The position numbers and the translations under genes were made by a program. A model generated the notes under the pieces. The model saw only the letters and a program-made list of their open reading frames with translations. It had not been told where the DNA came from and did no database searches. From Minisyncoccota bacterium (GTDB lineage Bacteria > Patescibacteriota > Minisyncoccia > UBA6257 > 1-14-0-10-44-23): a stretch of DNA of 64,000 nt. Position 1 is the first letter of the stretch. The number at the start of each line of letters is the position of its first letter. This document shows positions 408-47,056 of this stretch, one piece after another. The DNA lies in contig JAWKSL010000001.1 of the NCBI GenBank assembly GCA_041389085.1, positions 228,542 through 292,541 of the forward strand. Reading direction: 5' to 3'.

Positions 408-432
408 AACCGCCCGGAAGGGCGGTTTTGCA
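408..432 (+). terminator. rho-independent terminator of rpsT
   Basis: Hairpin aaaccgcccggaagggcggtttt followed by a T-run. Confidence 0.6.
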
Positions 433-499
433 TTCTTGGCTCACACTTGCTAGCATTGCCCTAGATCTACCCCCCCCTACCGCGAAAGGTTCCATACCC

Positions 500-1096
500 A
501 TGGACATTCAAGCGATCACTCGCCTTATCTTTGAGTCTGGCACCTTGCGCGGCACTCCGCGTTCGCATCGCCAGCTCCTGCTCACACGCGACGACAGCGA
601 CAACATCGCCGCCCACTCATTCCAGGTTGCCGTCATTGGCTTCTTCCTGGCCCACCTTGAAGGAGTTGACCCCTACAAGGTAGTGGTGATGTGTCTCTTT
701 CATGACCTTGGGGAGACGCGCACTGGAGACAAGAACTGGGTTCATCGCCCCTATGTTGTTGAGGATGAGCCGGCCATCGTCCGCTCCCAGTTTGGGCCTT
801 TTGAGGAGATTGGGCTGCCAGCCCTTATGCTCGAACAGCTCGAACACAAATCTCCCGAGGCTCGCGTAGTCAAGGACGCTGATGTGCTCGGGCAGATCTT
901 GCTACTTCTTGAGTACGCGCGCGCCGGAAACAAGGAGGCCGAACAATGGCTTGGTGGGCGGACCGAAAAGCGCCCCTACGCCTATGTTGACTATCTTCGA
1001 ACCCCTTCTGGGCAAGCGCTTGGTCGGTCCCTCTACGACACACCGGTGAATGACTGGTGGGCGCAGCTCTATAGCGGCGAGAAACGCAAGAAGTAA
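500..1096 (+). CDS. HD-domain phosphohydrolase (YfbR-like 5'-deoxynucleotidase family)
   Basis: Motifs AAHSFQVA...LFHDLGETRTGD match the HD superfamily. The ORF opens at 428; MDIQ at 500 is the likely start. Codon third positions are GC-rich compared with neighbours. Confidence 0.6.
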   Translation: MDIQAITRLIFESGTLRGTPRSHRQLLLTRDDSDNIAAHSFQVAVIGFFLAHLEGVDPYKVVVMCLFHDLGETRTGDKNWVHRPYVVEDEPAIVRSQFGPFEEIGLPALMLEQLEHKSPEARVVKDADVLGQILLLLEYARAGNKEAEQWLGGRTEKRPYAYVDYLRTPSGQALGRSLYDTPVNDWWAQLYSGEKRKK

Positions 1097-1102
1097 CGCA
1101 TT

Positions 1103-1126
1103 GGCGCCTTCCTAGGAAGGCGCCTT
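1103..1126. terminator. bidirectional terminator between the HD gene and holA
   Basis: Palindromic hairpin ggcgccttcctaggaaggcgcc flanked by T and A runs. Confidence 0.5.
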
Positions 1127-1133
1127 TACATTT

Positions 1134-1892
1134 CTAGCTTAGGACTATGTCGAGGAGAACCTCGGGATATTCTAGCTTCCCCGCCTTTATAAGCAGGTCG
1201 TAGTTTGCCATCTTTTCCTTTGCTTGTGGCGCGGAGAGCGCAGCTATCATGTTGAATATAGCTGCTGGGTCTTCGTTTTTAAGCAAGGTGTTTAAAATTT
1301 TGAGTTTCTTCTCTTGCGGGAGTGAGCCTCTGAGTGCGTTTATACTTGGGAAGAAATCTAGACTTTCTTTTATATTTAGCCCGTCTTTCGCTCCGAGGGC
1401 CCACTTCTCTATATCGTTTGTTGTTGCAAAAAGATCACCTCCATTTGCTTCTATAAGCTCGGCAATGTGCTCGTCTGAAATTTTAAAGTCTCTTTTTTCG
1501 GCCTCTTTTTTAATAAAGGTTTTTAGTTGAGCTCCTTTTAGCTCTTCAAATTCTTGCGATATAGCTGGCTTTGTAAGTAGAAACTTGAACTTTGCAGGAA
1601 GTTTCTTTTCAGAAACTACTACCAGGGTAGTATTTTTATCTTCGAGGAAGTTTTTCAAAAACTTTGTGGTTTCTGTGGGGCCTTTTTCTATGTCGAAAAC
1701 TACTGCGAGCGTCTTCTTCGCAAAAAGGCTCGTGTCTGAACAGAAAGTGAGTAGTTTATCGAAGTCGTCTTTTGCACTCAAAGCAAAGGTTGCGTATTTA
1801 CCCTGGGGATTTTTTTCTTTAAAGCTTGCTACAAGCTCAGCTGTCTTCTGCTGCCTGCGGTAAGCATCTTTTCCAAATAGGTATATGAGCAT
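1134..1892 (-). CDS. holA: DNA polymerase III delta subunit
   Basis: MLIYLFGKDAYRRQQKTAELVASFKEK... matches holA N-terminus; 252 aa, short form. Confidence 0.65.
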   Translation of the reverse strand: MLIYLFGKDAYRRQQKTAELVASFKEKNPQGKYATFALSAKDDFDKLLTFCSDTSLFAKKTLAVVFDIEKGPTETTKFLKNFLEDKNTTLVVVSEKKLPAKFKFLLTKPAISQEFEELKGAQLKTFIKKEAEKRDFKISDEHIAELIEANGGDLFATTNDIEKWALGAKDGLNIKESLDFFPSINALRGSLPQEKKLKILNTLLKNEDPAAIFNMIAALSAPQAKEKMANYDLLIKAGKLEYPEVLLDIVLS

Positions 1893-1953
1893 GCTCGTCT
1901 ATTTATAGGGTAAGGATAGCCCAGAACTAATGCGTAAGGCAAAGCCTGGCTTT

Positions 1954-1987
1954 GCTCTAGAGCTAACTCTAGAGTTAGCTCTAGAGC
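1954..1987. repeat. palindromic element built on the CTCTAGAG core (cassette A 5' element)
   Basis: gctctagagctaactctagagttagctctagagc. A related perfect palindrome sits at 31244-31265 in the same position relative to a promoter and a small ORF. Confidence 0.6.
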
Positions 1988-2009
1988 AGTGTGTGGAGGC
2001 TTGGGTTTT

Positions 2010-2038
2010 TTGACAAAAATTTCTTTTTGTTTTATTTT
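2010..2038 (+). promoter_or_regulatory. sigma70-like promoter of cassette A
   Basis: TTGACA at 2010, 17-nt spacer, then tatttt. Confidence 0.4.
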
Positions 2039-2083
2039 TGGATAGAGAAAAGTGCCTTAAAAGGCGCTAGAAAGGAGGCCTTG

Positions 2084-2317
2084 ATGCGAAACTGCCTTGC
2101 GTACATTTCGCGGCACTGGGGAGAGCTCCTTCTGGCGCCCCTCCTCGGAGCTCTCAATCTGGTGTACGCGGCTCACCAGGATGTGCCGCCTTGGCTGCAC
2201 AAAGTGCTATGCATCCCGGGGTGTGTGATCCTCGCAATCCCTCTCGTCCTCATCGATGACCTCATCGTCTGGAAGAGAGAAAGAGCGCTCCAGAAGACTC
2301 TCGATGTCTTCAATTGA
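2084..2317 (+). CDS. small (77 aa) two-TM membrane protein, GC-rich (cassette A)
   Basis: SD aggagg sits 5 nt upstream of the ATG. The protein is hydrophobic and carries a PPWL motif. The 1991-start ORF upstream is a read-through of the promoter region. Confidence 0.55.
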   Translation: MRNCLAYISRHWGELLLAPLLGALNLVYAAHQDVPPWLHKVLCIPGCVILAIPLVLIDDLIVWKRERALQKTLDVFN

Positions 2318-2330
2318 GCTCCCCGCCTGA

Positions 2331-2368
2331 CCCCAGCGACTCGTAGTCGCTGGGGTTCAACTTTTTTG
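2331..2368 (+). terminator. conserved terminator hairpin (family shared with 31590-31626)
   Basis: ccccagcgactcgtagtcgctgggg followed by ttcaacttttttg. Confidence 0.7.
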
Positions 2369-2398
2369 TCTTGTTACGTAGCAAGCTAGGTAACATGC
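2369..2398. repeat. palindromic element TTGTTACGTAGCAAGCTAGGTAACAT (cassette A 3' element)
   Basis: Matches 24 of 26 positions to the element at 44101-44126 (reverse complement), which also lies just past a terminator of a small peptide gene. Confidence 0.55.
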
Positions 2399-2519: not shown

Positions 2520-4148
2520 CTATTTTCTTTGCTTTGCGGCTTTTATAAGCCCGCTAAAGAGTGGGTGTGGGCTTAGTGGTCGGCTTAGAAACTCTGGGTG
2601 AGCCTGAGTTGCTACAAAATATGGGTGGCCCTTTAACTCAATAAACTCCATAAGTTTCCCATTTGGAGATTTGCCTGAGAAAATAAGGCCTTTCTTTTCT
2701 ATCTGCTCTACATATGCGTTATTTACTTCGTAGCGGTGGCGGTGGCGCTCGATAACGCGTGGCTTTTTATACAAACTTTCGACAAGGCTTCCTTTTTTGA
2801 GCTTTGCTGGGTAGTTTCCAAGACGCATTGTCCCGCCATAGTGCTTCTTTGCGAGCTTTTCTTTTTGGCTTTCCATAACGTCTATTACTACGTGTGGAGC
2901 TTTCTTATCTATCTCTGCAGTGTGTGCGCCCTCAAGGCCGACTACGTTTCTCGCGAACTCTACAACTGCAAGTTGCATGCCGTAGCAAAGGCCAAGATAT
3001 GGGATCTTGTTTTCTCTACAGAACTTTATAACGTTTATTTTCCCCTCTATCCCCCTGCTTCCAAATCCTCCTGGCACGATTATTGCGTCGCACTTCTTAA
3101 GTTCTGCGAAGCTTGCCTTTTTGTTTTCAAAATCTGAACTATTAAGCCACCCTATTACTGGCTTAAGCTGCTTTTCATAGGCTGCGTGCTTTACCGCTTC
3201 GATAACAGAAATATATGAGTCGGTAAGAGTAAACTCTCCCGTAGCAAAATACTTCCCAACTATTCCTACCGTAACTTCGCCTTTTGGATTTTTAATGCGA
3301 GATACAAAACGGCGCCAATCTGAAAGGTTTGGTTTTCGTTTTCGTAAATTGAGCTTCTCTATTATTCGGTCTCCTAGGCCGTCGCGCTCAAAGTTGAGCG
3401 GAACTTCGTAAATACTGTCTACGTTTGGCGCTGAAATAACGTCTTGCCCTTGAAGGCCGCAGTTGAAGGCTATTTTCTCCTTTCGCACCTTGTCGAGCGA
3501 CACGTCTGCGCGCGCAATAATTATGTCTGGCTGAATTCCCACTGCGTTTGCTTGGCGTACTGCATTTTGAGTTGGCTTACTCTTAAGCTCTCCGTCCTTT
3601 TGCAACGGAAGAAAGCCAACTAAAACAAACAGGGCGTTTTGTGGGTTTTTAATTTTGAGCATTCTGTAAGCCTCAAGGAAAAGAATGTTTTGATACTCAC
3701 CTATTGTTCCTCCTACCTCTACTACAACAAAGTCGCTTTTGTGTTTTGCAGCACTCGCTTCGAGTTTGTCGATAACAAGCATTGGGATTTCTGGTACTAC
3801 ACTTACGCACTTTCCTTTGTATTCTAAGTTCCTCTCCTTTCTTATCATTTCAAGATAGAGAGAGCCTGTTGTCATATAGTCGCTGGTGTAGAGCTCAGTG
3901 TTTAGGAAGCGCTCGTAGTTCCCCATATCTTGGTCTGTTTCAAGACCGTCTGATAAAACAAAAACCTCACCGTGTTCGGTGGGGTTCATAGTTCCTGCAT
4001 CAACGTTTACGTACGGGTCTATCTTTATTGCGCTGACAGAAAATCCACGTGCTTGTAAAATTTTGGCTACTGAAGACGCGGTTATTCCTTTTCCGATTCC
4101 GCTCATCACTCCTCCGGCAACGAATATAAATTTGGTTGACTTATCCAT
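2520..4148 (-). CDS. pyrG: CTP synthase
   Basis: N-terminal KFIFVAGGVMSGIGKG and a C-terminal glutamine amidotransferase domain (GLCYGMQ). The likely start is MDKSTKFIFV. Confidence 0.9.
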   Translation of the reverse strand: MDKSTKFIFVAGGVMSGIGKGITASSVAKILQARGFSVSAIKIDPYVNVDAGTMNPTEHGEVFVLSDGLETDQDMGNYERFLNTELYTSDYMTTGSLYLEMIRKERNLEYKGKCVSVVPEIPMLVIDKLEASAAKHKSDFVVVEVGGTIGEYQNILFLEAYRMLKIKNPQNALFVLVGFLPLQKDGELKSKPTQNAVRQANAVGIQPDIIIARADVSLDKVRKEKIAFNCGLQGQDVISAPNVDSIYEVPLNFERDGLGDRIIEKLNLRKRKPNLSDWRRFVSRIKNPKGEVTVGIVGKYFATGEFTLTDSYISVIEAVKHAAYEKQLKPVIGWLNSSDFENKKASFAELKKCDAIIVPGGFGSRGIEGKINVIKFCRENKIPYLGLCYGMQLAVVEFARNVVGLEGAHTAEIDKKAPHVVIDVMESQKEKLAKKHYGGTMRLGNYPAKLKKGSLVESLYKKPRVIERHRHRYEVNNAYVEQIEKKGLIFSGKSPNGKLMEFIELKGHPYFVATQAHPEFLSRPLSPHPLFSGLIKAAKQRK

Positions 4149-5254: not shown

Positions 5255-5366
5255 ACCTCTAGTTAAAAGTTTGTCTCTGCAAAAGTCAAAGTTTTGACTT
5301 TTAGCTCTGCTTGTTTTTAAATATCGATAGATCAACACAGTCCTTAGCTCCATTGGAGGAAAGATC

Positions 5367-5879
5367 GTGAAAGCTGCAATCCTTTGCCTTCTTGGCGCCC
5401 TTGTTGGCGTCTATCTCGTTGGTGTGCACGGCCTCCCTGCAACGAAGCTTGCGCACGTACTCGTGCTAGGAGGCATCGTCCTCGCGGCCGCTTTCTCTCT
5501 CCACTTTGCGACTCGTGCGAATTGCGGAGTGCCCATCTGCGACGATTCAGGCGATCCTCCGCTTGGCATTGTCGAGGTCGTTTCGGCTACGCGCGTTGAC
5601 TTTGATACTATGGGAGTCTTCATCAAGAAACCCAATGGAGAGTTTGATGAGCGCCTCTATCTTGAGGTGAATGAACGCTTGTTTGACCCCGCTATTAGTA
5701 AGTTCGCCCACCTTGAGTACCAGGCCCTACCCCACTCACTGACACCTCACTGGCGACGGCTTGCGCTCGTGAGCATCCCTGACGACCTCAGCACTGAGCC
5801 CATCGACTTTACTGAAGATGAGCCGGTGGCGCTCCCGCGGGCCGACAAGCCTCACGCTACCGCCCCTAAGGTGCCGTAG
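5367..5879 (+). CDS. hypothetical membrane-anchored protein, GC-rich (cassette C)
   Basis: GTG start preceded by ggagga; hydrophobic N-terminus; own terminator. No recognisable domain. Confidence 0.4.
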   Translation: MKAAILCLLGALVGVYLVGVHGLPATKLAHVLVLGGIVLAAAFSLHFATRANCGVPICDDSGDPPLGIVEVVSATRVDFDTMGVFIKKPNGEFDERLYLEVNERLFDPAISKFAHLEYQALPHSLTPHWRRLALVSIPDDLSTEPIDFTEDEPVALPRADKPHATAPKVP

Positions 5880-5885
5880 TACCGT

Positions 5886-5930
5886 ATCAGCCGCCGTTTG
5901 CACATGCGAATGGCGGCTGATTGCTTTTTA
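5886..5930. terminator. bidirectional terminator
   Basis: Hairpin atcagccgcc...ggcggctgat followed by ttgcttttt. Confidence 0.6.
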
Positions 5931-7259
5931 GTCTTGCCCAAAGGTGCCCACCTCGCGCTGAGGGATAAGGCCCGAATCTGTAGGAAGCGTAAAGTGGAAG
6001 GTAGAGCCTCTACCAAATACTGACTCTACCCATATTTGCCCGCCGTGCTGGCGGATAATGTTTTTCGCTATATAAAGTCCAAGACCACTTCCGGTGGTGT
6101 CTTTTTTTGTAACTGTTTCACTGCGGTAAAACTTTGTAAAAAGCTTATCTACCTCGTCTTGCTTAACTCCTACCCCGGTATCTTCAACAGTAATTTCTAC
6201 AAATGGCGCAGCTTCCTTTTCTTTTATTCTTACTATTACCTGCCCGTTTTCCACGTTGTACTTTATTGAGTTGTCGAGCAGGTTTGAAAGAACCATGGCT
6301 ATTTTTGAGGCGTCCATTGTTATCTGAATTTGCTTGTCTGGCTTTTCAAAAAACACATTTACCTTGCGCTGCATAGCTACTGGCGCTGCCTCGTCTACAA
6401 CTTTTTGGATAAAGCTGGTTATCTCTTCTTCCTTAAACTCAAAACCAAAGCGACCCTCCTCAATTTTGGTGACGTCTAAAAAGTCGCGAACTATGTTGCT
6501 AAGCTTCTGCGCTGCCTGTGAGCCTGCGGTAAATACACTGCGGCGAGTTGCATCGTCCAAATCTGGCTTTGCAAGCTCTTGGAAGGCCCAATTTATAGCG
6601 CTGAGTGGGGTGCGCAACTGGTGGCTTGCTACGGTAATGAATTCGTTTTTGCTTCGCGCGAAATTTACTGCACGCGTTCTGTCGTGGATGATTTTTACAA
6701 AAGCTCCCTGGCCGCTTTCTCCGCTAATTGGGATAGTTATAGACTGAAGCTCCATAAACGGATTTTCAAAAGAAAGATTTACTACCTGCGGATACTCGCC
6801 TGGTTTTGAAATTGGGTGAATAGATGGGGCAAGCGATGGGAACATAACCTGCCTAAGCAGGGTAAGGCTTGGGTTGCTTGCACTTGTTTGTATAGAAAAT
6901 ATCTTCCCCACTATCTCAGACTCCTTCACCTCGAAAAGAGTTTCGGCTTTTTTGTTGAAATTGAGCACTTTAAAATCGCTATCGTAGGCAATAACCGCAT
7001 CGTTTAGGTTTCGCACTATTGAGGTAAGAAGGTCGTGTTCAAGGTTGAGCTTTCCTTTTGTTTTTGCGCGGCCAAATGTAGCAGCAAAGAATATCGCAAC
7101 AAGAGAAGTAAGTAGAATGCCGGCTATTGCTTTAAATATAGCTGGCATATAGATAAGACTGAGCACGAGGAGCGCAACAATGACAAGAAGGGCTACGTAA
7201 AAGAAACGAGCGCTTTTGCTTTTAAGAAAAATTTTGGCTTCTCTGAGTATCTTTTTCAT
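5928..7259 (-). CDS. sensor histidine kinase (two TM helices, PAS-like, HisKA, HATPase_c)
   Basis: HQLRTPLSAI H-box, and DTGVGV...GSGLGL G-boxes. Confidence 0.8.
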   Translation of the reverse strand: MKKILREAKIFLKSKSARFFYVALLVIVALLVLSLIYMPAIFKAIAGILLTSLVAIFFAATFGRAKTKGKLNLEHDLLTSIVRNLNDAVIAYDSDFKVLNFNKKAETLFEVKESEIVGKIFSIQTSASNPSLTLLRQVMFPSLAPSIHPISKPGEYPQVVNLSFENPFMELQSITIPISGESGQGAFVKIIHDRTRAVNFARSKNEFITVASHQLRTPLSAINWAFQELAKPDLDDATRRSVFTAGSQAAQKLSNIVRDFLDVTKIEEGRFGFEFKEEEITSFIQKVVDEAAPVAMQRKVNVFFEKPDKQIQITMDASKIAMVLSNLLDNSIKYNVENGQVIVRIKEKEAAPFVEITVEDTGVGVKQDEVDKLFTKFYRSETVTKKDTTGSGLGLYIAKNIIRQHGGQIWVESVFGRGSTFHFTLPTDSGLIPQREVGTFGQD

Positions 7260-12669: not shown

Positions 12670-15167
12670 TTTTCTTTTCGTAGTGTAAGTTCTGCTTCGT
12701 AAGTATCCCTATCTTCGTCGCGCACCCTTACTCGCAGGGTGTTTTTGGTTTTTAGTATATCTTCGTCGAACTGAACTGTTTGATTGTAGGTATAGCTTTC
12801 CTCAAAGAATCCCTGCTGCTCATCGATAAGATTGTTGTTGAGATACACCTTTATCTCTTTTATTTTTTTCTCCAGCACTATGCTCATCTGTAGATTGATT
12901 GAGTCACCTGAAATTGTGCCGTTGTTTTCAGGGCTAATAATCACCACTGATTGGTCCTCTGATATCTGGCTTATTTTGCTTGGGTCATACGGCTCAGGTA
13001 TTGAGCCTGGCGGAATCGTTTGGTTGTACTGGCCTGAGTCAAATCCTGGCACGTTTTCTTTTGCCCATTGATTTACTGAGCTCTCCCAGTTTGCATACTG
13101 CGGATCTGCTGCGCGCTGTGGCTCTAGCCCAAGAGGGTTGTTTTTGTCGATGTAGAAAAGGATGTTGTGCACCTGTGGGTAGTCGTCTCCTCCATCTTTA
13201 TAGTTTACGATTGGCGATCCGTTCAGTATTGGTTTGTCTGTTTGCGGAGCCTCAACTATGGCAAAGTTTTCACTTTCTGTTTCTGGAAGTGCCTCTCTTA
13301 GGAATGCGCTCCACATTGGAATAGCAGAGAATACGTATCCCCCGTTTGGACTCATTGGCTTATTGTCGTTGTTTCCTGTCCAAATACCGACAGCAAAGTT
13401 TGGTGTATATCCAAACGCCCATACATCGCGGTAGTCATTACTTGTTCCAGTCTTAAGAGCTACGTCGTAGCCTGGAAATACTGTGAGTCCAAGGCTATTC
13501 CTAAATAGCCCTGATCGGAGCTCGGCGCTTGAAAGAATGTTGTTTATAAGACGTGGATATTCTTTTGCTACCACTCTTTTTTCTTCCGGCTCAAATTCTT
13601 CGAGGATGTTTCCGTCTCTATCTTCAATGCGTAAAATATAGCTTTGTGGGTGGTAAACTCCTTCCTCTGCAAGAGTGGCATATGCTCCTACAAGCTGCTT
13701 CAGCGTTACCTCTCCTCCTCCAAGCACCAGAGAAAGCCCAATCCTGTCTTTATCCTCAAGTGTTGTGACTCCAAAGTCTCTTAGGGTTTGAATGACATTG
13801 TCGATTCCTGCTATGTAAAGTGTTTTTACTGCTGGGATGTTCATTGACTGGGCAAGCGCAACCTCAAGCTGTACTGGCCCTCTAAATGCAAAGTCAAAGT
13901 TTTTTGGCTGGTAACTTTTTGCTCCTGCTGCAGCAAACTCTGTAAGCACATCAAACACAACCGTCTTAGGGGTTAACCCTTTCTTAAAGGCAGTCATATA
14001 GGTAAATGGCTTTGTTGCAGATCCTGGCTGTCTTAGCCCCTGAGTGGCTACGTTAAAGTTTCCATCTATATCTTCACTAAAGTAGTCCTTCGAGCCCACC
14101 ATGGCTAAAATTTGGCCAGTGTTGGTGTCTTGGGCAACGAGCGCAGCATTTGTTCCTCCGTAAAGCTCAGTGTTTCTTTCAACCCCTTCAGCAATTACCT
14201 TCTCTGCTATTTGTTGTATGTCCCAGTCGAGAGTTGTTATGACTTTTAGCCCTGAGCGGCGCACAAAATCCTCTCCGTATTTATCGATTAAGTATTCTTG
14301 AACTTCTATAGAAAAGTGAGGCGCCTTCAGCGCTCCTTTTGATTTCTCAAACTCAAATTCGTACTCCTGTGCGTCTACTTTTTCTTCGAGAGTTATGTAC
14401 CCAAGATCGTACATTCGCTCAAGCACATAGTTTTTTCTATTTAGTAGGTCCTCTACGTGTGAACCCCATGGTGAGTAGTAGGTAGGTGCTTGCGGAAGGC
14501 TTGCCAAAAGTGCTGCTTGAGGGAGATTTAACTCGCTTGCTGACATATTGAAGTATGTTTGCGATGCTGACTCTATTCCGTAAGCGTTTCCCCCGTATGG
14601 AATTTGGTTTAGGTAGAGGTGGAGAATTTCATCTTTTGTAAATTGCTTTTCAAGGCGCATTGCTAAAATGAGCTCCTTAATTTTTCGGATATAGCTCTTT
14701 TCTGGTGTTAGGAATGCGTTTTTTGCGAGCTGTTGCGTGATAGTTGATCCTCCTTGCTGCTTGCTGCCGGCCATAATATTTGCCACTACTGCACGTGCAA
14801 TAGCTGGAAGATCGATAGCTCCATGCTCATAGAAGCTCTCGTCTTCTATAGCAATCGTTGCGTTGCGCACGTAGTCTGGAACCTCGTCTTTTGATATAAC
14901 CGTTCGACGTTCTTCTTCAAAGAGCTCATACAGAAGGGTTTCTTCTGTTCGGTCGTATATTTTTGTTGACTCGATAACTTGTTGCTCTCCGAGTTCCTGC
15001 GGCGAAGGAAGGTCGTAGGTGAAGAAAAGGAAAATTCCGGCAAAAATAATACCGCACAAAACAGCGGTTAAAAATGAAAATAAGAAGATATGTTTCATTA
15101 TCTTCTTTTTTGTTCCTTCGGTAATAAATTTTCGGCGCTTAAACATGCGCCCAAAGAGGCTCTTCAT
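12666..15167 (-). CDS. class A penicillin-binding protein (transglycosylase + transpeptidase) with long C-terminal extension
   Basis: EDESFYEHGAID...GGSTITQQLAKN matches the GT51 domain; SATKP transpeptidase motif. Confidence 0.8.
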   Translation of the reverse strand: MKSLFGRMFKRRKFITEGTKKKIMKHIFLFSFLTAVLCGIIFAGIFLFFTYDLPSPQELGEQQVIESTKIYDRTEETLLYELFEEERRTVISKDEVPDYVRNATIAIEDESFYEHGAIDLPAIARAVVANIMAGSKQQGGSTITQQLAKNAFLTPEKSYIRKIKELILAMRLEKQFTKDEILHLYLNQIPYGGNAYGIESASQTYFNMSASELNLPQAALLASLPQAPTYYSPWGSHVEDLLNRKNYVLERMYDLGYITLEEKVDAQEYEFEFEKSKGALKAPHFSIEVQEYLIDKYGEDFVRRSGLKVITTLDWDIQQIAEKVIAEGVERNTELYGGTNAALVAQDTNTGQILAMVGSKDYFSEDIDGNFNVATQGLRQPGSATKPFTYMTAFKKGLTPKTVVFDVLTEFAAAGAKSYQPKNFDFAFRGPVQLEVALAQSMNIPAVKTLYIAGIDNVIQTLRDFGVTTLEDKDRIGLSLVLGGGEVTLKQLVGAYATLAEEGVYHPQSYILRIEDRDGNILEEFEPEEKRVVAKEYPRLINNILSSAELRSGLFRNSLGLTVFPGYDVALKTGTSNDYRDVWAFGYTPNFAVGIWTGNNDNKPMSPNGGYVFSAIPMWSAFLREALPETESENFAIVEAPQTDKPILNGSPIVNYKDGGDDYPQVHNILFYIDKNNPLGLEPQRAADPQYANWESSVNQWAKENVPGFDSGQYNQTIPPGSIPEPYDPSKISQISEDQSVVIISPENNGTISGDSINLQMSIVLEKKIKEIKVYLNNNLIDEQQGFFEESYTYNQTVQFDEDILKTKNTLRVRVRDEDRDTYEAELTLRKEN

Positions 15168-15194
15168 TTCTTGTTAATACTAGCGCGGGTTTAT

Positions 15195-15677
15195 CTAATT
15201 TTCTAGCTTCCTCGCTTTATACTCCATCGCTGATGCGATAGCAATAGCGACTGCGTCTGCAGTATTGTCTTCCTTAATTTCTTCTTTAAGGTTTAGAATT
15301 CTTGCTGTTATTTTAGAAACTGCTTTTTTATCTGCAGATCCATATCCGACTACAGTGCTTTTTACCTGCATCGGTGTTAGTTCAACAAGATTTTTTTGAA
15401 CACTGAGCGCTTGCGCTACTATTACTCCCCTTGCTTGAGCCACCTCGATAGCAGTTTTTTTATTTTTAGCGAAAAATAATTTTTCTACCCCAATTATATC
15501 TGGTTTGTATTCTTCGATTATTTTATTTATCTCGTTTTTAATTTCGAGAAGTTTATAGCTTGGATCTTTTTCTTTTATCTCTAAAAGCCCACAGTCTTCT
15601 AACGTAAATACCCCCTCATCTCTTACTAACGCATACCCTATTAGAGTACTTCCTGGATCTATACCAAGTACGCGCAT
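15195..15677 (-). CDS. ruvC: Holliday junction resolvase RuvC
   Basis: MRVLGIDPGS start. Confidence 0.85.
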   Translation of the reverse strand: MRVLGIDPGSTLIGYALVRDEGVFTLEDCGLLEIKEKDPSYKLLEIKNEINKIIEEYKPDIIGVEKLFFAKNKKTAIEVAQARGVIVAQALSVQKNLVELTPMQVKSTVVGYGSADKKAVSKITARILNLKEEIKEDNTADAVAIAIASAMEYKARKLEN

Positions 15678-15678
15678 C

Positions 15679-16788
15679 TTAGCTTTCAAGCGGCATTACG
15701 ATGTAAAACATTGAGTCGTCTCCTTGTGGTTTTATCATCGCTGGTTTTTGGGTTGAGTTTAGACTAAATACTATTTCTTCTTGTGAAATTGACTGAAGTC
15801 CTGCTAAAAGATAGCGCCAGTTAAAGGTTATTTCGTTTATATCTTTTCCTTCGCGCTTTACTGGGATTTTATAGTTATTTTCTCCAAGAGATTGAGTACT
15901 TGAATATATTTCTAGGAAATTTGTGTCTTCTTTTAGTGAAAGTTTCACCTCTGTTGTTTTCCCTGAAAAGCTACTTACTAGCCGCATAGCATTTATAAGC
16001 TCAGATCTGTCGATGTGGAGTGTTGTAGTGAAGTCTTTTGGAATTATTCCTTGATAGTCTGGGTACTCCCCACTAATTACGCGTGAGATAACACTACTAC
16101 TCTCTGACTCAAATAGAACTTGGTTTTCATCTTTCGCTATTGTTACCTCTTCGCTGTTTTCAAAAACTTTTATAACCTCATTTACTGTCATTAGAGGAAT
16201 AATCACTCTAAACCCTTCATCGAAAGTCGATTCAAAATCGGTATTGAGAAGGGTTTTTTCTGCGAGACGGAAGCTGTCGGTTGCTGCGAGCTTTAAAATT
16301 CCTATTTGATAGTCAAAAAGTATACCTGAGAGCTCTGGTTTAAGCTCTGAAATTTGCGCTGCGTTTATAACTTGTGAAATTGCTGACTTAAGAGTTTCTG
16401 TTTTTATCTTTATGTTTTTCTCGCGCTCCTCTATTTTAGGAATTATTGGAAACTCATCTGCTTTTAAGCCCTGAATCTTCGCTTCATAGTTATCGGTTTT
16501 CACATTTAAAACCTCTCCGTCTAGCTGGAGTGTTACTCTTTCTGACTGAGTGTTGTTTACGATGCTAAATAGTGGATGAAATGGAATTGTTATCTCCCCT
16601 GTTTCAACAACTTTGCATGCAGCTTTTGTTTTTATCGCGAGTTCAAGATTTGTACTCGTGATAGTAAGACTTTTATCTGCACTTAATAAAACATTTTTCA
16701 GTATTGGAAGGTTTGAATTTTGAGTTACTGCTCGTTCTGTTTTTATAAGAGCTGTTTTTAAATTGTCTTTAAGTATTATCAACTGCAT
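15679..16788 (-). CDS. dnaN: DNA polymerase III beta sliding clamp
   Basis: MQLIILKDNLKTALIKTERAVTQNSNLPIL... is a good match to DnaN N-terminus; 369 aa. Confidence 0.85.
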   Translation of the reverse strand: MQLIILKDNLKTALIKTERAVTQNSNLPILKNVLLSADKSLTITSTNLELAIKTKAACKVVETGEITIPFHPLFSIVNNTQSERVTLQLDGEVLNVKTDNYEAKIQGLKADEFPIIPKIEEREKNIKIKTETLKSAISQVINAAQISELKPELSGILFDYQIGILKLAATDSFRLAEKTLLNTDFESTFDEGFRVIIPLMTVNEVIKVFENSEEVTIAKDENQVLFESESSSVISRVISGEYPDYQGIIPKDFTTTLHIDRSELINAMRLVSSFSGKTTEVKLSLKEDTNFLEIYSSTQSLGENNYKIPVKREGKDINEITFNWRYLLAGLQSISQEEIVFSLNSTQKPAMIKPQGDDSMFYIVMPLES

Positions 16789-31329: not shown

Positions 31330-31356
31330 CGATGGTGCTCTTGAGGAGGTGTTGGG

Positions 31357-34777: not shown

Positions 34778-35020
34778 CCTCCTCTCCTTCCTTAATTTTC
34801 TTAGTTTCCTAACTTTTCAGCTCTTTGTTTTTCTTTTCGAAAAATGCTCAATGATACACTTCGTAGTATCACCTGCGCTTTTTCGCCTTGAAAACAAAAA
34901 CTAAAAAGAGAAACCTAAATAACTAAGGAAGGAAGAGAAGGCTGGGGGGGCGCAGCGGCAGTTTCTCATAGCTGGCGCTTTTTGTTTTGGTTTGCTACCG
35001 TGGGCTTGAAGGAGGTTCAC

Positions 35021-35284
35021 ATGAACGCAGTCCCTGTGAGTTTGAAGTGGCTGAAGGTGCGCCTTGCGGTGCTTGAAACAGGCGAGCTTTTGGCCTGGTA
35101 CACCGGTCTGGTTGTGCTTGCCGCCGCATTCTTCCAAGCCATGATGTACGGCCTTTGGCCTTACTTCTACCTCTGGTTCGCTGCAGGGGCTCTGTGGTGG
35201 ATCGGGAAGGGGCTTGGGGCGCGCGCAGACGCTTTGCGTCACATTGTGCGCCCTGAGCTCAACGCAGGCGCCAGTCGAAGATGA
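35021..35284 (+). CDS. small (87 aa) membrane protein, GC-rich (cassette E)
   Basis: SD aaggagg sits 6 nt upstream of ATG (MNAVPV); W/L/A-rich TM helices. The stop codon lies inside the terminator hairpin. Confidence 0.45.
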   Translation: MNAVPVSLKWLKVRLAVLETGELLAWYTGLVVLAAAFFQAMMYGLWPYFYLWFAAGALWWIGKGLGARADALRHIVRPELNAGASRR

Positions 35285-35299
35285 CTGGCGCCTTTAATT
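35267..35299 (+). terminator. terminator ggcgccagtcgaagatgactggcgcc followed by tttaatt
   Basis: Perfect 10-bp stem. Confidence 0.55.
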
Positions 35300-35319
35300 A
35301 TTTGCTATACTTTCTATGT

Positions 35320-35664
35320 ATGGCATTAACACAAGAACAAATAGAGAAAGCGAAGGCTCGCCTCGAGGAGTTGCGCGCTGAGCTCGAAAAAGACATAGAC
35401 TACCTTGAGTCTCCGGTAGACTATGGCGACGACATTGATAGTGGAGATGAGGAGGCTGATGAAGCAGAAGAGTTTTCTGCAAACGCTGGGCAAGCTCTCG
35501 ATGTGCACGCACGGCACGAAGCAGTAGTAACTGCGCTTTCAAAAATTGATCGCGGTGTGTACGGCACGTGCGAAGAATGCAGTGGGCAGATAGAAGAAGA
35601 AGTGCTGCTTGTAAACCCAGAAGCTCGATACTGCAAAAAAGACATTGCTAAAAAGAATTCTTAA
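35320..35664 (+). CDS. DksA/TraR-family C4 zinc-finger protein
   Basis: CEECSGQIEEEVLLVNPEARYC four-cysteine finger after a coiled-coil region. Confidence 0.6.
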   Translation: MALTQEQIEKAKARLEELRAELEKDIDYLESPVDYGDDIDSGDEEADEAEEFSANAGQALDVHARHEAVVTALSKIDRGVYGTCEECSGQIEEEVLLVNPEARYCKKDIAKKNS

Positions 35665-35666
35665 CG

Positions 35667-37217
35667 ATGAGTGGGCGCGTAGCAAAGCTGTATTCTGCTG
35701 AGCTTGAGGGAATACAGGCGCGTCTTGTTGAAGTGGAGGCCGACGTAAGTGTTGGCCTCCATTCGTTTTCTATCGTTGGCTTGGCCGACAAGGCCTTAAA
35801 CGAGGCTAAGGAGCGCGTAAATGCAGCTCTGAAACACGCTGGAGTAAATCCGCCTAGTAAAGAAAACAGGCGGATTGTTGTAAACTTGGCGCCGGCTGAT
35901 TTAAAAAAGACTGGTACACACTACGATTTAGCTATCGCTATCGCCTACTTGGCGGCGACAAATCAGATAAAGGATTTTGATTTTTCTAAAACACTTTTCT
36001 TAGGCGAGCTTTCTCTTTCTGGTGAACTTAGGCCGGTGTCGGGAGTTTTGAGCATTGCTTCTTTTGCTAAGAGAAGGAAAATGAAGCGCATTATACTTCC
36101 CTATTCAAACGCACGCGAAGCTGCGCTTATCGACGGTGTCGATATCATTCCGGTAAAGACACTTACTGAGCTCATTGGCTTCCTAGAAGGGAAGCTGGCG
36201 ATAACGCCGCAGGAAAAAACCACTATTTCTACCGATTTTGAAAGCAGGAGCGAGGTAGACTTTGCCGATGTGTATGGGCACGAGGCGGTAAAGCGCGCTC
36301 TTTTAATAGCAGCTACTGGTGGGCACAACGTACTTTTGAGCGGGCCTCCAGGCACAGGGAAGACTATGCTTGCTCGTGCTTTTTCTACCATACTGCCTGA
36401 GCTTTTGGAGCAGGAAGTTTTAGAGCTTACAGAAATTTATAGTAGTGCTGGGCTTTTGGGCGAGTTTGGCTACGTAGCTTCCAGGCCTTTTCGCAGCCCA
36501 CACCAAAGTGCCTCCGCTGTAGCTCTTATGGGCGGTGGGCAAATGCCAAAGCCTGGGGAGATAAGCTTGGCGCACAAGGGAGTTTTGTTTCTAGATGAAG
36601 TTGCTGAGTTTCGAAAAGATGTGCTTGAAAGCTTGCGCCAGCCTATCGAGAGCGGGCGCGCGATTATTAGTAGAGCGCGCGCACGGTTGGAGTTTCCAGC
36701 AAACTTTGTACTTGTGCTTGCTATGAATCCTTGCCCATGTGGGTTCTATCAAGATGAGGAGCGCGCATGCAAATGTAGTGCGCACGAAGTTTTGCGCTAT
36801 CAGAAAAAGCTTTCAGGTCCCCTACTCGACAGAGTCGACATACAGGTAGAAGTGCCGCGCATTTCCATTGAAGAACTTTCTGCGCGCAATGCAAAAGAAG
36901 GCAGCGCAAGTAGTTCTATTCTTCGCGCACAAGTGAAAAAGGCGCGCGCGTTTTCACACGAGCGCATGGAGGAGTTTGGCGTTGAGAAAAAACAAAACAG
37001 TGATTTGCAAAATAAAGAGCTTGAAAATATAGCTCAGCTCGATGAGGATGCACACAACTTTGTGCAGAGAGTTTTTGATAAGAGCCTGGTGAGTCCGCGC
37101 GGATATTATCGAATTTTGAAAGTAGCGCGCTCTATCGCCGACCTAGAAGGAAGCGATACGGTGAAGCGTTCACACATTTCCGAGGCATTTGGATACAGAG
37201 TGAGGCAGGCTGACTAA
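35667..37217 (+). CDS. yifB: YifB/ComM-family Mg-chelatase-like AAA+ ATPase
   Basis: LLSGPPGTGKTMLA Walker A and a C-terminal ChlI-like domain. Confidence 0.85.
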   Translation: MSGRVAKLYSAELEGIQARLVEVEADVSVGLHSFSIVGLADKALNEAKERVNAALKHAGVNPPSKENRRIVVNLAPADLKKTGTHYDLAIAIAYLAATNQIKDFDFSKTLFLGELSLSGELRPVSGVLSIASFAKRRKMKRIILPYSNAREAALIDGVDIIPVKTLTELIGFLEGKLAITPQEKTTISTDFESRSEVDFADVYGHEAVKRALLIAATGGHNVLLSGPPGTGKTMLARAFSTILPELLEQEVLELTEIYSSAGLLGEFGYVASRPFRSPHQSASAVALMGGGQMPKPGEISLAHKGVLFLDEVAEFRKDVLESLRQPIESGRAIISRARARLEFPANFVLVLAMNPCPCGFYQDEERACKCSAHEVLRYQKKLSGPLLDRVDIQVEVPRISIEELSARNAKEGSASSSILRAQVKKARAFSHERMEEFGVEKKQNSDLQNKELENIAQLDEDAHNFVQRVFDKSLVSPRGYYRILKVARSIADLEGSDTVKRSHISEAFGYRVRQAD

Positions 37218-37525
37218 TTTTGTACCTCAAGAGTTGCTTCTGGCCCTGTTGATCCTTGGCCGAATTTGAAAAAGAGAAATGCGCCGGCAGCTCCGGCAAC
37301 GACTACGAGAAGAGAGATGAGAATTATGAGCTTTTTCGAGCTCTTTTTTTGTGGCTTTGGTGTACCAACAGTTGCAACTTGTGGAGCGCTTACCCTTTGC
37401 GGTTGTACAAGCTGTGGTTCTGGTACTGCAAGGCCGCGTGCAACGCTTTGGGCGTCGCTACTAAGTGTGCGCAGAGAAACTTCTGGTACTGGCGGTGGGC
37501 CTACTTGCTGTGTTTCATTTGGCAT
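37214..37525 (-). CDS. proline-rich protein with C-terminal TM anchor, hypothetical
   Basis: ORF plus a C-terminal hydrophobic helix. Confidence 0.3.
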   Translation of the reverse strand: MPNETQQVGPPPVPEVSLRTLSSDAQSVARGLAVPEPQLVQPQRVSAPQVATVGTPKPQKKSSKKLIILISLLVVVAGAAGAFLFFKFGQGSTGPEATLEVQN

Positions 37526-37593
37526 GTTGGTTGTAGTATAGCAAAAAAAGAATACCGCCGGGCCCTGGGTGGGCACGGCGGTAAGCTGGTGGT

Positions 37594-37806
37594 TCAGGGG
37601 AAGGCAACGAGATCGTCGTCGCTTGCATGCCCTGCACGCTTCGTACGCTCCGCAAGCTCGTTGATGTCGGTCTTCTTGAAGACCATCTGGCCTCCGTCTC
37701 TGAAGGCGCGGATCTCCCCTTCCGTAACGAGGCGCTTGAGGCGATTCTCGTCGATACCGAGCACTTCCATTGTCTCGTCAAAGCTGTAGTAGGCGGACCC
37801 TTCCAT
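37594..37806 (-). CDS. small HTH DNA-binding protein (excisionase/MerR-like), GC-rich
   Basis: METLGIDENRLKRLVTEGEIRAF helix-turn-helix; 70 aa. Confidence 0.5.
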   Translation of the reverse strand: MEGSAYYSFDETMEVLGIDENRLKRLVTEGEIRAFRDGGQMVFKKTDINELAERTKRAGHASDDDLVAFP

Positions 37807-37926
37807 TTCTGAGCTCCTTTCGTTTTGGGTATGAGCTTACATTTTATCGCTTTGCTTGGCAAGGAATTGCTTTTTTTGAAACCAAAAACGGCCTACGCAT
37901 ATACGTAGGCCGTTTTTCTCAATCTT

Positions 37927-44100: not shown

Positions 44101-44126
44101 TTGTTACGTAGCTTGCTACGTAACAA
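44101..44126. repeat. perfect 26-bp palindrome ttgttacgtagcttgctacgtaacaa
   Basis: Same element as 2369-2398; lies just past the terminator of the minus-strand mini-gene. Confidence 0.55.
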
Positions 44127-44127
44127 G

Positions 44128-44160
44128 AAGTGAAGAGGCGCGACTCAGGGAGAGTCGCGC
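44128..44160. terminator. bidirectional terminator (fba on +, mini-gene on -)
   Basis: ggcgcgactcagggagagtcgcgcc followed by tttcg. Confidence 0.55.
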
Positions 44161-44303
44161 CTTTCGCGTGTGAGGCTGTCGCCGCTTACGAAGAAGAGAA
44201 GGGCGGCAGTGAAGGCAGCTACGAGGAGCCCGACCCACCACAGGCCAGTTCCCTTTGCGACTCCGAAACCAAGCGCAGATCCGATGATGAGGTCGCAGTG
44301 CAT
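44145..44303 (-). CDS. unannotated 52-aa hydrophobic mini-protein, GC-rich (cassette D)
   Basis: Perfect SD aggagg sits 5 nt upstream of ATG. Sequence MHCDLIIGSALGFGVAKGTGLWWVGLLVAAFTAALLFFVSGDSLTRERRDSP. A TTGACC promoter lies upstream; the stop codon is inside the terminator hairpin. Confidence 0.45.
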   Translation of the reverse strand: MHCDLIIGSALGFGVAKGTGLWWVGLLVAAFTAALLFFVSGDSLTRERRDSP

Positions 44304-44390
44304 GGGGCCTCCTTTTACTATTATTCAGCCAGCTTTTTTGCCTCTGGTCAATACTTTTAAACCTGCCGTAATTTAACTACACTAGCTTTA

Positions 44391-44837
44391 ATGATTAGTT
44401 TGATTGTTGCGATGGACAAGGAGCGATGCATTGGCAAGAACGGTTCTTTGCCGTGGCATCTTCGCGCTGATTTGCAGCGCTTAAAAGATATAACTACTGG
44501 GAACGCAATTATTATGGGGCGCGCAACTTTTGAATCGATTGGTAAGGCGCTGCCAAATCGGCAAAACATTGTTCTTACCTCTGATAAGAACTTTTCTTTT
44601 CCTGGTGTTGAGGTTGCAAATTCTCTCCAGGAGGCTTTTGGGCTTGTGGAAGATGGCCGGGAGGCAATTGTGTTTGGCGGAGCTTCTGTCTATGAAGCTG
44701 CGCTGCCGCAGGTTGCCGTCGACATCGTAACGCCAAAAGTCGAGCTATGCGAAGTGGAAACTTTTAGCATGATCAAACCAGACGTTGTTGTAATTTCTCA
44801 ATCAACAAAAGCACACGACAGGAGAAACAGTTGCTGA
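44391..44837 (+). CDS. folA: dihydrofolate reductase
   Basis: MISLIVAMDKERCIGKNGSLPWHL...TTGNAIIMGRATFESIG. Confidence 0.8.
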   Translation: MISLIVAMDKERCIGKNGSLPWHLRADLQRLKDITTGNAIIMGRATFESIGKALPNRQNIVLTSDKNFSFPGVEVANSLQEAFGLVEDGREAIVFGGASVYEAALPQVAVDIVTPKVELCEVETFSMIKPDVVVISQSTKAHDRRNSC

Positions 44838-45375
44838 TCTGGGAAGGTTTCAGGTGCTGAAGTTGCTTGTTTTCAAAACCACAAGCGACTACTTCAACAA
44901 TTGCAAAGCTTCGTCTTATGCAGATTTCTACTGCAAAGAAGTTACGGAAACACTTCCACAAAAGATGGCTCAGCTCATTGAAGAGCTGGCGGGCGGAGAA
45001 GTTTCTAAGAGCCGAAAAAAGAAATGAAAATAGTTCTTTGCTACTTGCCAGTTTTGCACGAAGAAGAATTATTATCAGTTTCAAAACCTACAAAGACACT
45101 GGTATTTGTATTCTTGGGGAAAACTTTTTTGAAGACAAGCCTCTTTCAAGGAGCATCCCCGCGCACTCGGCCTGTTTTAGCTAAAAAAGCTCTTAAAGGC
45201 TGGGCAATCTTCCCAGCAGTGCGCATAGTCGAAAAAGCCGACGTGCTAAACCTTGATAAAGAAGGGGCTCTGATAGTAATGCCAAACGATGAGTTGTGAG
45301 TGACGCGATCTTACGACTTCTGAGCTCAACTTTCCTTCGACTCTATCTTTTTGCGTTGGGATAAGCACCGCGCTA

Positions 45376-45837
45376 TGGAAATGAAACCAGTAGAAGTTGA
45401 CCAAACGCTTTCAGCTGAAGATTTCCTGCGTGGATTCTTTCAAGTTTAAAAATGAAGCAGAAGAAAAAGGCTCTAAGACATTTGGCGCCGCATTGGTGCG
45501 GCGATCGTGAAGAGACGGTGAAATTGTTTCGCAACGTACAATAAGCATGTACCAAGTGAGCACGCCCATTTAGCCTCTGGTGATCCGAAATAATTTTCAA
45601 AGGAGTTTGCGTTGAACTCTCTGTTTTTGCATGCAGAGTCTGCATGTTGCGCAGGCTGCCAAAAATGGAGTTTCTCTTGAGGGTGCAGACATGTATCTGG
45701 CGGGTGTTTCCTTGCCGCCCTGCGCTAAGGGCTGTTGCTTATTCGGGCGTAAAGACACTACTCCTGGTGGGTACAGAGTTCTCAGCAGTGCTGACATACT
45801 CAAGGCTCAAGGAGTGGAAATAATATACGTAGGCTAG
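45376..45837 (+). pseudogene. dCMP deaminase (ComEB-like) pseudogene, frameshifted
   Basis: Pieces in different frames: FGAALVRRS (VGAVIV-like), then an intact C-terminal half in-frame, ...GADMYLAGVSLPPCAKGC (PCxxC zinc motif). Confidence 0.5.
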
Positions 45838-47056
45838 ATTCGTAAATGAGAAAGGCGCGCAACACTTGCGCAGCCAATCGCGCCTTTCACGTGCTAACCG
45901 TTAGGCCTTCTTCATCCTGCCCTCGAGCAGCTGGAGCTCTTCTTGTAGTGGGCGCATGACTGCTTCAACGGCTCAGTGCTGCCGCCACGCTGAGCTCGTA
46001 AGGCGTCTCGGAAGACCTCTACGAGGCTCCTTTCTCCTCGAGCTTCTCACGGCGTCTGCCTTGAAGAGAGGCAGACGCCTCTGCGCTGCCATTCGGCACG
46101 AGCACGTTCTGTGTCACAGGTGGCGGATGGTGCCTGCGATCGAGGCGCACGGATCAGCCGAAGCGCATGAGCGAACCACCACCAGGAAGGTTGATGCCCT
46201 TGATGAACCCTCCACTCATCATCTGCCTCCGGGAAGGTGCCGATCCCTCTCCAGTGGCTCGGCTCCACCAGGGGCCGAGTCAGTCTTGTGTTCACGGGGA
46301 GCCATGACCGGTGGCGGCAGTACCCTTCGCTGGGTAGAGTTGGCCCAGAAGCTCTCCATCCGGAGTGCTCGACGAACACGCCTTGTTCTTCTCGGGGTCG
46401 AGGTTGCAGAAGGGCACTCTCCTGCCTGCAGCATGTTGCGCATGGCAACAGTACTGGGTAGCATGAAAGTACTTGCAGCGCAGCGGTCTTCATGATCCTG
46501 TGGTTGAAATTCGCAGCTCTTGGGGTGCACGAGATTATCCTCGCTGGGGTTCCTAGTTCTTGGGTTCTTCTCGGTTTTCAACTATTTTCCCCGCTGTAGT
46601 CAAGCAGCTGCACGAGTTTTTACCTTGACTGACTGGTGGTTTGGCTGAAATCTACGTTTCCTTGTAGAAGTTGTGCGTGTATGTGCTTTACACTTCGCCG
46701 GTGTATTTTGTGTTTAAAGCGGACAAATGAAGGAGCACTACTTCCCCTGTGTTGTCCTGCGAGCCACTGCCAGTGCCTTCCGAAACTCTTCAAATTCCTG
46801 GCAAGGCCAGTTCACTGATATGCTCGGCGTGTCTTTTAAAATAAGGATGAAATGATTTGCTTTGTTCCTTCGTATGGCTTGCTGGTTTTTGTCGTAAGCC
46901 AGAGTCTCCTTCTTTGAGAATTGGTTCTTTGTGGTACTTATCCTAGGCTTTCTTTACAGAAAGGGCAATTGTCGTCTTCTACTATTTGCTGCATCACTTT
47001 TTTCTGCTCGTCGATGCGTGAATTTCAAATCTGCAAGTGTTTCTTTCGCTCATATT

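Follow-up and report, generated by a model that had tools for sequence, protein, structure and literature searches.

Why should a few small genes, scattered among the A/T-leaning core genes of a bacterium, favor codons that end in G or C? The question is raised by a 64-kb stretch of contig JAWKSL010000001.1 (the whole stretch is called the window below), in which seven genes form a GC-rich class: those of an HD-domain hydrolase (HD) and an excisionase-type helix-turn-helix protein (HTH), the orphan gene orf170 and four small membrane-protein cassettes (A–D). GC-rich accessory DNA totals about 3 kb, or 5% of the window. We found that these genes have a codon usage of their own, that some of them are missing at the same sites in relatives and that those shared with the nearest relative are either mosaics or conserved to an unusual degree. 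The genes were probably acquired, at various times, by horizontal transfer and recombination from a pool of higher GC content that circulates among Patescibacteria.

A separate codon-usage class in a Paceibacterota window

Several proteins encoded in the window are exact matches to the NCBI entries MEZ4156604-646, annotated as "MAG: Candidatus Paceibacterota bacterium" (MAG, metagenome-assembled genome), and the source organism is therefore a Parcubacteria-type member of the Candidate Phyla Radiation (CPR) and not a saccharibacterium. The gene content comprises dnaA, dnaN, ruvC, pyrG, fpg, ruvB, uvrD, comM and pnp as well as fba, folA, recA, a class II ribonucleotide reductase gene and a cluster resembling a type IV secretion system (T4SS).

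The overall GC content of the window is 45.7% (0.457 ± 0.050 in 200-nt sliding windows), a level from which the islands listed in Table 1 stand out. The 54 open reading frames (ORFs) outside the class have a GC content at third codon positions (GC3) of 0.431 ± 0.054 and do not exceed 0.553, and the seven GC-rich ORFs lie at 0.61–0.74. We also compared the GC3 of each ORF with the value that its amino acids would give if they were encoded with the codon usage of the core. The resulting z-scores of +4 to +6 (Table 1) show that the composition of transmembrane (TM) helices is not the explanation, and the class is no artefact of length, since short ordinary ORFs never exceed a GC3 of 0.55. The amino acids of the GC-rich proteins lift the expected total GC only from ~0.45 to 0.50–0.52 and the observed values are 0.51–0.61, so that amino-acid bias accounts for less than half of the excess. 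The third-position bias of HD, HTH and the cassettes, which a preliminary description of this DNA had judged by eye, was thus recovered both by sliding-window GC and by per-ORF GC3, above the ordinary maximum and above the amino-acid expectation. Its picture of a core with A/T-ending codons holds in direction for pyrG, pnp and recA (GC3 0.43–0.44), but core third positions are merely ~57% A/T.

The difference is one of codon dialect rather than a uniform shift. The core prefers codons ending in A (A3 0.32, CCA 0.58, GTA 0.45, ATA 0.35) and leaves CCC, TCC, GTC, CTG and CGG nearly unused; the corresponding figures of the GC-rich class are A3 0.11, ATA 0.00, CCC 0.30, GTC 0.29 and ATC 0.71. A leave-one-out test separated the two classes without overlap, with log-odds per codon of +0.11 to +0.33 in all seven candidates (+0.33 in cassette A) and of -0.07 to -0.67 in all 54 other ORFs. 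A composition-normalized tetranucleotide test, which the preliminary description had proposed, flagged only 45.9–46.5 kb (z 3.7) in 600-nt windows; it has too little power for short units of 200–600 nt.

A strong hairpin terminator, itself GC-rich, lies downstream of each gene of the class. An Rfam scan at gathering thresholds combined with ARAGORN over the whole window yielded five tRNAs only, all outside the GC islands, which are therefore not known structured RNAs. In an Rfam E-value scan of 44.7–48.45 kb, one sub-threshold hairpin and nothing else was found.

Table 1. GC-rich genes, islands and associated elements of the window (GC3 and z refer to the ORF given, where it differs from the feature).
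Feature	Position	Strand	GC3	z	Details
GC-rich island	350-1210				GC 0.56, among the strongest
HD_3/YfbR-like HD-domain hydrolase, 198 aa	500-1096	+	0.64	+6.0	Pfam HD_3 4.6e-17
Cassette A	1893-2371	+	0.64 (ORF 1991-2317)	+4.0	81-nt element copy, putative promoter, ORF, terminator
GC-rich island	2022-2387				
24-nt palindrome, TGTTACGTAGC-AA-GCTAGGTAACA	2372-2395				directly 3' of cassette A
GC-rich island	5318-6062				GC 0.55, among the strongest
orf170, 170-aa orphan membrane-anchored protein	5367-5879	+	0.61	+5.3	
81-nt element with TCTAGAG palindromes	31190-31270				upstream of ksgA; in relative contig L103 at 3439-3519
Cassette B insertion	31274-31681	+	0.67 (ORF 31357-31605)	+4.6	putative promoter, ORF, terminator, second hairpin
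GC-rich island	31290-31665				
GC-rich island	34912-35389				
Cassette C, 87-aa Trp/Ala/Leu-rich membrane mini-protein	35021-35284	+	0.68 (ORF 34982-35284)	+4.7	MEZ4156635.1; log-odds +0.11
GC-rich island	37374-37842				
Excisionase-family HTH, 70 aa	37594-37806	-	about 0.73-0.74	+4.9	MEZ4156639.1; PF12728 6e-11
24-nt palindrome, second copy	44102-44125				between fba stop and cassette D terminator
Cassette D, 52-aa membrane mini-protein	44145-44303	-	0.68		log-odds +0.21
3.7-kb replacement region	44716-48427				by comparison with relative contigs L104 (4833-7585) and L105 (1923-5010)
GC-rich island	45790-46579				GC 0.58, among the strongest
GC-rich (58%) block, no intact gene	45790-46580		0.59		GC1/2/3 = 0.64/0.59/0.59, no codon periodicity

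Gene gaps and presence in relatives

A PyrG scan of species-representative genomes gave 80 Paceibacteria-type loci, nine of which resemble the window in local gene order. Six of these (L005, L006, L018, L029, L057 and L081) have a large part or the whole of the backbone T2SSE-ruvB-LTD-tsaE-exo-HK-(fpg)-pyrG-holA-rpsT, and shorter stretches are present in L013, L016 and L020. The gaps that hold GC-rich genes in the window are mostly tight in these relatives. The pyrG-holA gap, 627 nt with cassette A in the window, measures -1 to 89 nt in seven relatives and 1852 nt in L016; the holA-rpsT gap, 732 nt with HD, measures 2–49 nt in four of five relatives and 545 nt in L081; and the HK-fpg gap, 574 nt with orf170, measures 5–92 nt in three of four relatives and 1198 nt in L005.

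The nearest relative is represented by Logan contigs from the runs SRR23004066/74/75. Its core genes are 85–94% identical to those of the window at the nucleotide level, most proteins are 93–99% identical, and synonymous codons differ at 15–39% of identical residues. Cassettes A and B and the GC-rich block at 45.8–46.6 kb are missing there. The relative does contain HD, orf170 and cassette D, which were found again in separately assembled data of the three sequencing runs and whose GC3 there is still 0.58–0.68. By codon and identity comparison, as distinct from a tree, all three are discordant with their flanks: HD is a mosaic, the middle of orf170 is unalignable and cassette D is over-conserved. 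A metagenome scan with PNPase found only distant relatives (<=51% identity) with another gene order, which are uninformative for cassettes B and C and HTH.

These results speak for the suggestion of the preliminary description that the GC-rich genes come from an acquired or separately evolving pool: they occupy gaps that are tight in relatives, three units are lacking in the nearest relative, the shared genes are mosaic or anomalously conserved, and HTH belongs to the excisionase family.

Small ORFs that are GC3 outliers were also seen in relatives, at 2505-2954 of L006 and 12126-12443 of L081 (z +3.8 to +5.9), and the ORF at 3046-3273 of L001 is likewise among those lying at backbone gaps or beside an HD gene. 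The inserts of L081 and L006 were considered as counterparts of the window's units and rejected, since these ORFs are of doubtful standing and bear no relation to the window's own. GC3-outlier gap inserts may be general in the group.

The HD hydrolase gene

The longest HD reading frame opens at a TTG codon at 428. The gene occupies a GC-rich islet of ~350–1210, has its own terminator (1103–1124) and encodes an exact match to an NCBI protein (P0001). The product resembles HD_3/YfbR-like 5'-deoxynucleotidases, scoring above the Pfam thresholds for PF13023 (62.8, gathering 22.5) and PF12917 (40, gathering 25.9). It matches solved structures (PDB 1YNB/1YOY of AF1432, 2CQZ, and 2PAQ of YfbR), its relatives in PDB being AF1432, PH0347 and YfbR. 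It differs from YfbR itself in scoring below the cut-off of the NCBIfam equivalog NF003009 (32.9 bits against 122), and is a candidate phosphohydrolase.

In the close relative the gene is a mosaic. The 5' half shows 95.5% amino acid identity with 18% synonymous codon differences, and the 3' half 61% with 45%. The dS of 0.71 and the dN/dS of 0.21 for the whole gene are averages across this mosaic and give no simple divergence time.

We detected 36 relatives of HD, of which the named ones are from Paceibacterota and Woesebacteria only (2), and every genomic context inspected was small-genome and Patescibacteria-like. The GC3 of the HD gene matches that of its neighbors in three other CPR genomes (0.25 against ~0.23, 0.49 against ~0.47 and 0.44 against ~0.35), so GC-richness is no property of the family. 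The gene is GC-elevated in L001 as well (0.59 against 0.42), so that three of the four genomes looked up show native composition.

Cassettes A and B and their repeats

Cassette A consists of a copy of an 81-nt element with TCTAGAG palindromes (1910–1990), a promoter-like site (TTGACA-17-TATTTT, 2010–2038), an ORF for a 77-aa membrane mini-protein (2084–2317) and a terminator (2329–2357). It is wholly missing in the close relative (contigs L100 and L004), in which the 46 nt from holA to pyrG hold nothing but the start of the former, the stop of the latter and a 24-nt palindrome. Cassette B has a similar promoter-like site (TTGACA-17-TATTCT, 31291–31319; TTGACA-17-TATTNT in both), an ORF for an 82-aa membrane mini-protein, a terminator (31588–31616) and a second hairpin (31640–31682). 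The close relative (L103) has ~30–40 nt at this site instead of ~410 nt, and no homolog of cassette B was found in 5.8 billion proteins. The terminators of the two cassettes are 94% identical and their ORFs barely align. When cassettes A–D were compared as one family, only A and B gave a marginal "AH..PPWL" match (E 0.035), and no family was established. Folding of the transcripts, done to see whether the cassettes could be RNA genes, gave z-scores of -3.8 for A with its terminator, -2.3 for B without it and -1.0 for D.

The copy of the 81-nt element in cassette A is 78% identical to the one upstream of ksgA. The latter is present in the relative that lacks cassette B, which marks it as part of the backbone rather than cargo, predating cassette B. 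The element contains two or three overlapping TCTAGAG-N5-CTCTAGA palindromes and lies in the divergent promoter regions of holA and cassette A and of ksgA and cassette B. By its architecture it looks like an operator of a dimeric regulator.

The 24-nt near-perfect palindrome has the general form TGTTACGTAGC-NN-GCTACGTAACA (also given as TGTTACGTAGCNNGCTACGTAACA) and is found in this lineage downstream of pyrG and fba only. It accompanies two of the seven GC-rich units, A and D. At the empty site of cassette A (L100 153-174; L004 1997-2018) it is inverted in orientation, and a variant lies near cassette D in the relative contigs L104 and L105.

orf170, cassettes C and D, and the HTH gene

orf170 has its own terminator (5886–5921). 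Among 1.84 billion representatives it matched itself and one 53%-identical protein. This homolog sits at the same site in the close relative with conserved ends, and ~400 nt in the middle (5387–5795) are unalignable. In L100, ~290 nt that are extra relative to the window (2769-3056) lie between fpg and orf171 and hold a direct repeat of ATAAACACGAGGATTGAG.

The terminator of cassette C (35266–35293) overlaps its own stop codon. The cassette is probably present in the close relative, since two contigs of the latter break at both its edges. The terminator hairpin also overlaps the annotated start (35281) of a DksA-like gene. DksA-like similarity begins at residue ~18–20, and the true start of this gene is probably the ATG near 35320.

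A cassette ORF at 44130–44360 did not hold up as the preliminary description had given it; the real ORF, cassette D, is on the minus strand and has 52 codons (Table 1). Its terminator (44132–44165) folds at -24.7 kcal/mol (z -6.3). Gene calling in the relative also found this ORF (L104 4263-4421), in which 51 of 52 amino acids and 156 of 159 nucleotides are identical. Synonymous codon differences amount to 2 of 48 (4%), against 23–40% in the flanking fba and folA. Conservation of this degree implies either a constraint on the nucleotide sequence itself, such as an RNA that overlaps the ORF, or that the lineages have exchanged the cassette very recently.

The HTH protein exceeds the cut-offs of TIGR01764 (30.5 against 28.8) and PF12728 (42.8 against 27) and also matches PHROG excisionase families. 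A search of 5.8 billion proteins returned the self match only. The gene is flanked by comM, a core-type TM gene and pnp, and neither a partner integrase nor an att-bearing element was found among its neighbors. The boundary of the GC-rich DNA is sharp here: the co-oriented gene 70 nt away (37214–37524) has a GC3 of 0.35, against 0.73 in HTH, and core codon usage.

The GC-rich block and the replacement region

Opposite the 3.7-kb replacement region, an intact folA C-terminus, thyA, dcd, a dCMP deaminase gene and tmk are found in the close relative. The window has lost these five items and has unrelated decayed DNA instead, within which lie the GC-rich block and, in inverted orientation, a folA pseudogene (47205–47507). 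The remaining folA of the window (44391–44837) matches DHFR over residues 1–114 only. A blastn search of the region against plasmid and phage collections gave no match, and a Pfam scan of stop-free frames of 45.4–46.6 kb found nothing. A decayed HIT/GalT-like gene, guessed from "VPFCNLDPEKNKA", was likewise unsupported by the Pfam scan of the block's frames.

The GC-richness that the preliminary description had assigned to a decayed block at 45.9–47.0 kb is real within 45790–46580 only. The block has no codon periodicity, and a statement on its third positions is therefore without meaning. Similarly, what had been taken for a third, degenerate terminator copy at 46538–46590 proved to be an exact 12-mer, TCGCTGGGGTTC, at 46541–46552, which is the 3' arm alone and forms no hairpin.

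Origin of the GC-rich genes

The composition class, the insertion status of its members, their pattern of presence and absence and the occurrence of HD relatives in Patescibacteria-type genomes are direct observations, and they agree best with transfer and recombination from a GC-richer patescibacterial pool. The GC-rich units are one-gene islets in intergenic gaps of a conserved backbone. HD, orf170 and cassette D, and probably cassette C as well, would already have been in place when the lineage separated from its nearest known relative, and later they would have been reshuffled into mosaic alleles or retained with hardly any change. The 45.8–46.6 kb block and cassettes A and B would have arrived after the split. 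HTH may have done so too; the recovered contigs of the relative do not include its locus. The donors of the orphan genes would be GC-richer Patescibacteria, and the composition would persist through slow amelioration or repeated allele replacement. The codon usage of the class points the same way. Among the fetched loci, which included no actinobacterial genome, the best fit was with Paceibacteria loci of 50–55% GC (L029, L027, L088, L033 and L068), in agreement with a leucine usage of CTC>CTT>CTG and a GC3 of ~0.65. In aquifer Patescibacteria, other members of the phylum are the source of most horizontal gene transfer (HGT) that has been detected, and HGT was held to account for as much as 13% of the length of a genome (PMC12455944).

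Several observations weigh against this reading. The searches with orf170, HTH and cassette B found no donor sequence for any orphan gene. Apart from HTH we saw no mobility gene, and neither a tRNA association nor a target-site duplication is visible at the two junctions (cassettes A and B) that were compared with the relative's empty sites. In bacteria, DNA of foreign origin tends to be richer in AT than the genome that takes it up. The older islets (HD, orf170 and D) have about the same GC3 as the recent ones despite a dS of ~0.7–0.9, and simple amelioration would predict a visible decay; the persistence may reflect repeated allele replacement from a GC-rich pool, as the mosaics suggest, or a bias acting in situ. 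The analysis covers 64 kb of genome. Depending on how the relatives branch, a single ancestral loss might formally account for the pattern at individual sites.

A bias in situ would mean that native genes lie in recombination hot spots or are under selection pushing third positions to G or C, possibly by GC-biased gene conversion (gBGC) or because rare codons throttle the translation of membrane or toxic peptides. The loci are indeed recombinogenic (mosaic HD and orf170, a nearly identical D, contig breaks at C), a GC3 of 0.58–0.68 has been kept in both lineages despite the high dS, and the class uses exactly the codons that the core avoids. We nevertheless regard this origin as unlikely, because cassettes A and B and the GC-rich block, being without counterpart in the nearest relative, are insertions whatever their later history, and because HD, cassette A and orf170 are missing at the same sites in most distant relatives. 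Furthermore, the shift in GC3 of +0.2 to +0.3 is far above the gBGC effects reported in bacteria, which are much smaller, the GC boundaries match gene edges without grading into the flanks, and first and second codon positions are enriched in GC too. An artefact of TM-helix amino acids, of chance in short ORFs or of chimeric assembly of the MAG is scarcely credible. Five of the seven products are hydrophobic mini-proteins rich in Leu, Ala, Trp and Pro, and A, B, HTH and the block are known from this one MAG only. Such an artefact is at odds, however, with the z-scores conditioned on amino acids and the low GC3 of short ordinary ORFs described above, with the strongest signal being in the non-membrane proteins HD and HTH, with the recurrence of HD, orf170 and D in three runs, and with the promoter architecture and terminator common to A and B, which are colinear with conserved flanks.

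The preliminary description had thought it worth testing whether, in an episymbiont of high-GC Actinobacteria, such genes could have been captured from the host. The genes are GC-richer than the recipient, a donor outside CPR is possible for orphans without traceable relatives, and transfers from Actinomycetota to Patescibacteria, although rare, are on record (1 of about 130 events; PMC12455944). This origin now appears very improbable. The organism belongs to Paceibacterota and has no known actinobacterial host, and all HD homologs with a name or context are CPR-like; no actinobacterial match appeared, and searches of 1.8–5.8 billion proteins with HTH, orf170 and cassette B gave no match at all from outside. 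High-GC Actinobacteria have a GC3 above 0.85, unlike the GC3 and leucine usage of the class in the above comparison among non-actinobacterial loci. The corrected premise (Paceibacterota instead of Saccharibacteria) removes the story of transfer from host to symbiont.

Other features of the window

A mirror class of AT-rich genes is formed by dnaN and ruvC (15195–16788; GC3 0.26–0.29, z -4.4 and -5.5) in an island of 36% GC at 15003–17196 that adjoins dnaA. The GC3 of both genes is equally low in the close relative (L110; 0.28 and 0.29, proteins at least 90% identical), and this is therefore a stable feature of the lineage. The T4SS-like cluster (20196–30309) is of ordinary composition and includes a T4SS pilin and a TraG-like ATPase; PrgI- and TraC-like genes are found in the relative. 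Inside the cluster, 24335–24721 encodes a 128-aa protein of the 23S-rRNA-IVP/bAvd family.

Two identical 52-nt sequences (59532–59583 and 59709–59760, spacing 177 nt) form a direct repeat, the second copy of which overlaps the 3' end of tRNA-Pro (59746–59817, minus strand) and the hairpin downstream of this gene. The pair has the appearance of an att-like duplication or of a remnant left by an element integrated at the tRNA. The L25/Ctc homolog at 48493–49122 aligns with 76% identity to the relative over 48493–49074, and its open frame begins only at 48817. This suggests an in-frame stop or a frameshift, i.e., a pseudogene or a sequencing error.

Mechanism and likeness to known systems

No integrase or transposase domains were found in the window ORFs scanned with Pfam. 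Hints at a mechanism come from the 24-nt palindrome at A, at D and at the empty site of A, and from the excisionase-type HTH. The palindrome and the element and terminator shared by A and B fit recombination-mediated copying between sites or genomes. We give a small chance to the bolder view that Paceibacteria have a cassette-shuffling system, so far undescribed, with the GC-rich mini-genes as its cargo. Units complete with promoter, mini-protein and terminator would recombine at short palindromes, across genomes and intergenic sites, with TGTTACGTAGC-NN-GCTACGTAACA as the candidate site. Re-import from the GC-richer pool would be the reason that the cassettes never ameliorate, and the system would supply fast-varying surface or membrane peptides for episymbiotic life.

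As short stand-alone membrane peptides (52 aa in D, 77–87 aa in A–C), the cassette products resemble the hydrophobic peptides of type I toxin-antitoxin systems, and the conservation of synonymous sites in D is what the constraint of an overlapping RNA would give. They differ in having no family match; in addition, the transcript of D is not unusually structured. Integron cassettes are similar as small single-gene units of foreign composition, and here an imperfect palindrome lies 3' of two units and marks an empty site. An identity with integron cassettes was rejected, because no integrase or attI was found in the window, the units are scattered and form no array, A and B have promoter-like sites and every cassette a terminator of its own, and the palindrome accompanies only part of the units.

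The closest likeness is to the HGT islets of Patescibacteria (PMC12455944), which share atypical GC content and codon usage, patchy presence, insertion between core genes, mostly intra-phylum donors and mostly hypothetical or membrane cargo. The units of the window differ in being single genes of 0.25–0.8 kb, not multi-gene islands, in being GC-richer and not AT-richer than the recipient, and in having no integrase, tRNA site or flanking repeat, save for one excisionase-type HTH. Compositionally atypical HGT within the phylum has thus been documented already, and the present case is confirmatory. It contributes to the picture of the flexible CPR genome single-gene islets of foreign composition slotted between essential genes, with a content that differs even between relatives whose core genes are ~90% identical and with a cargo of mostly orphan membrane mini-proteins, which are plausible candidates for interaction with the host or surface.

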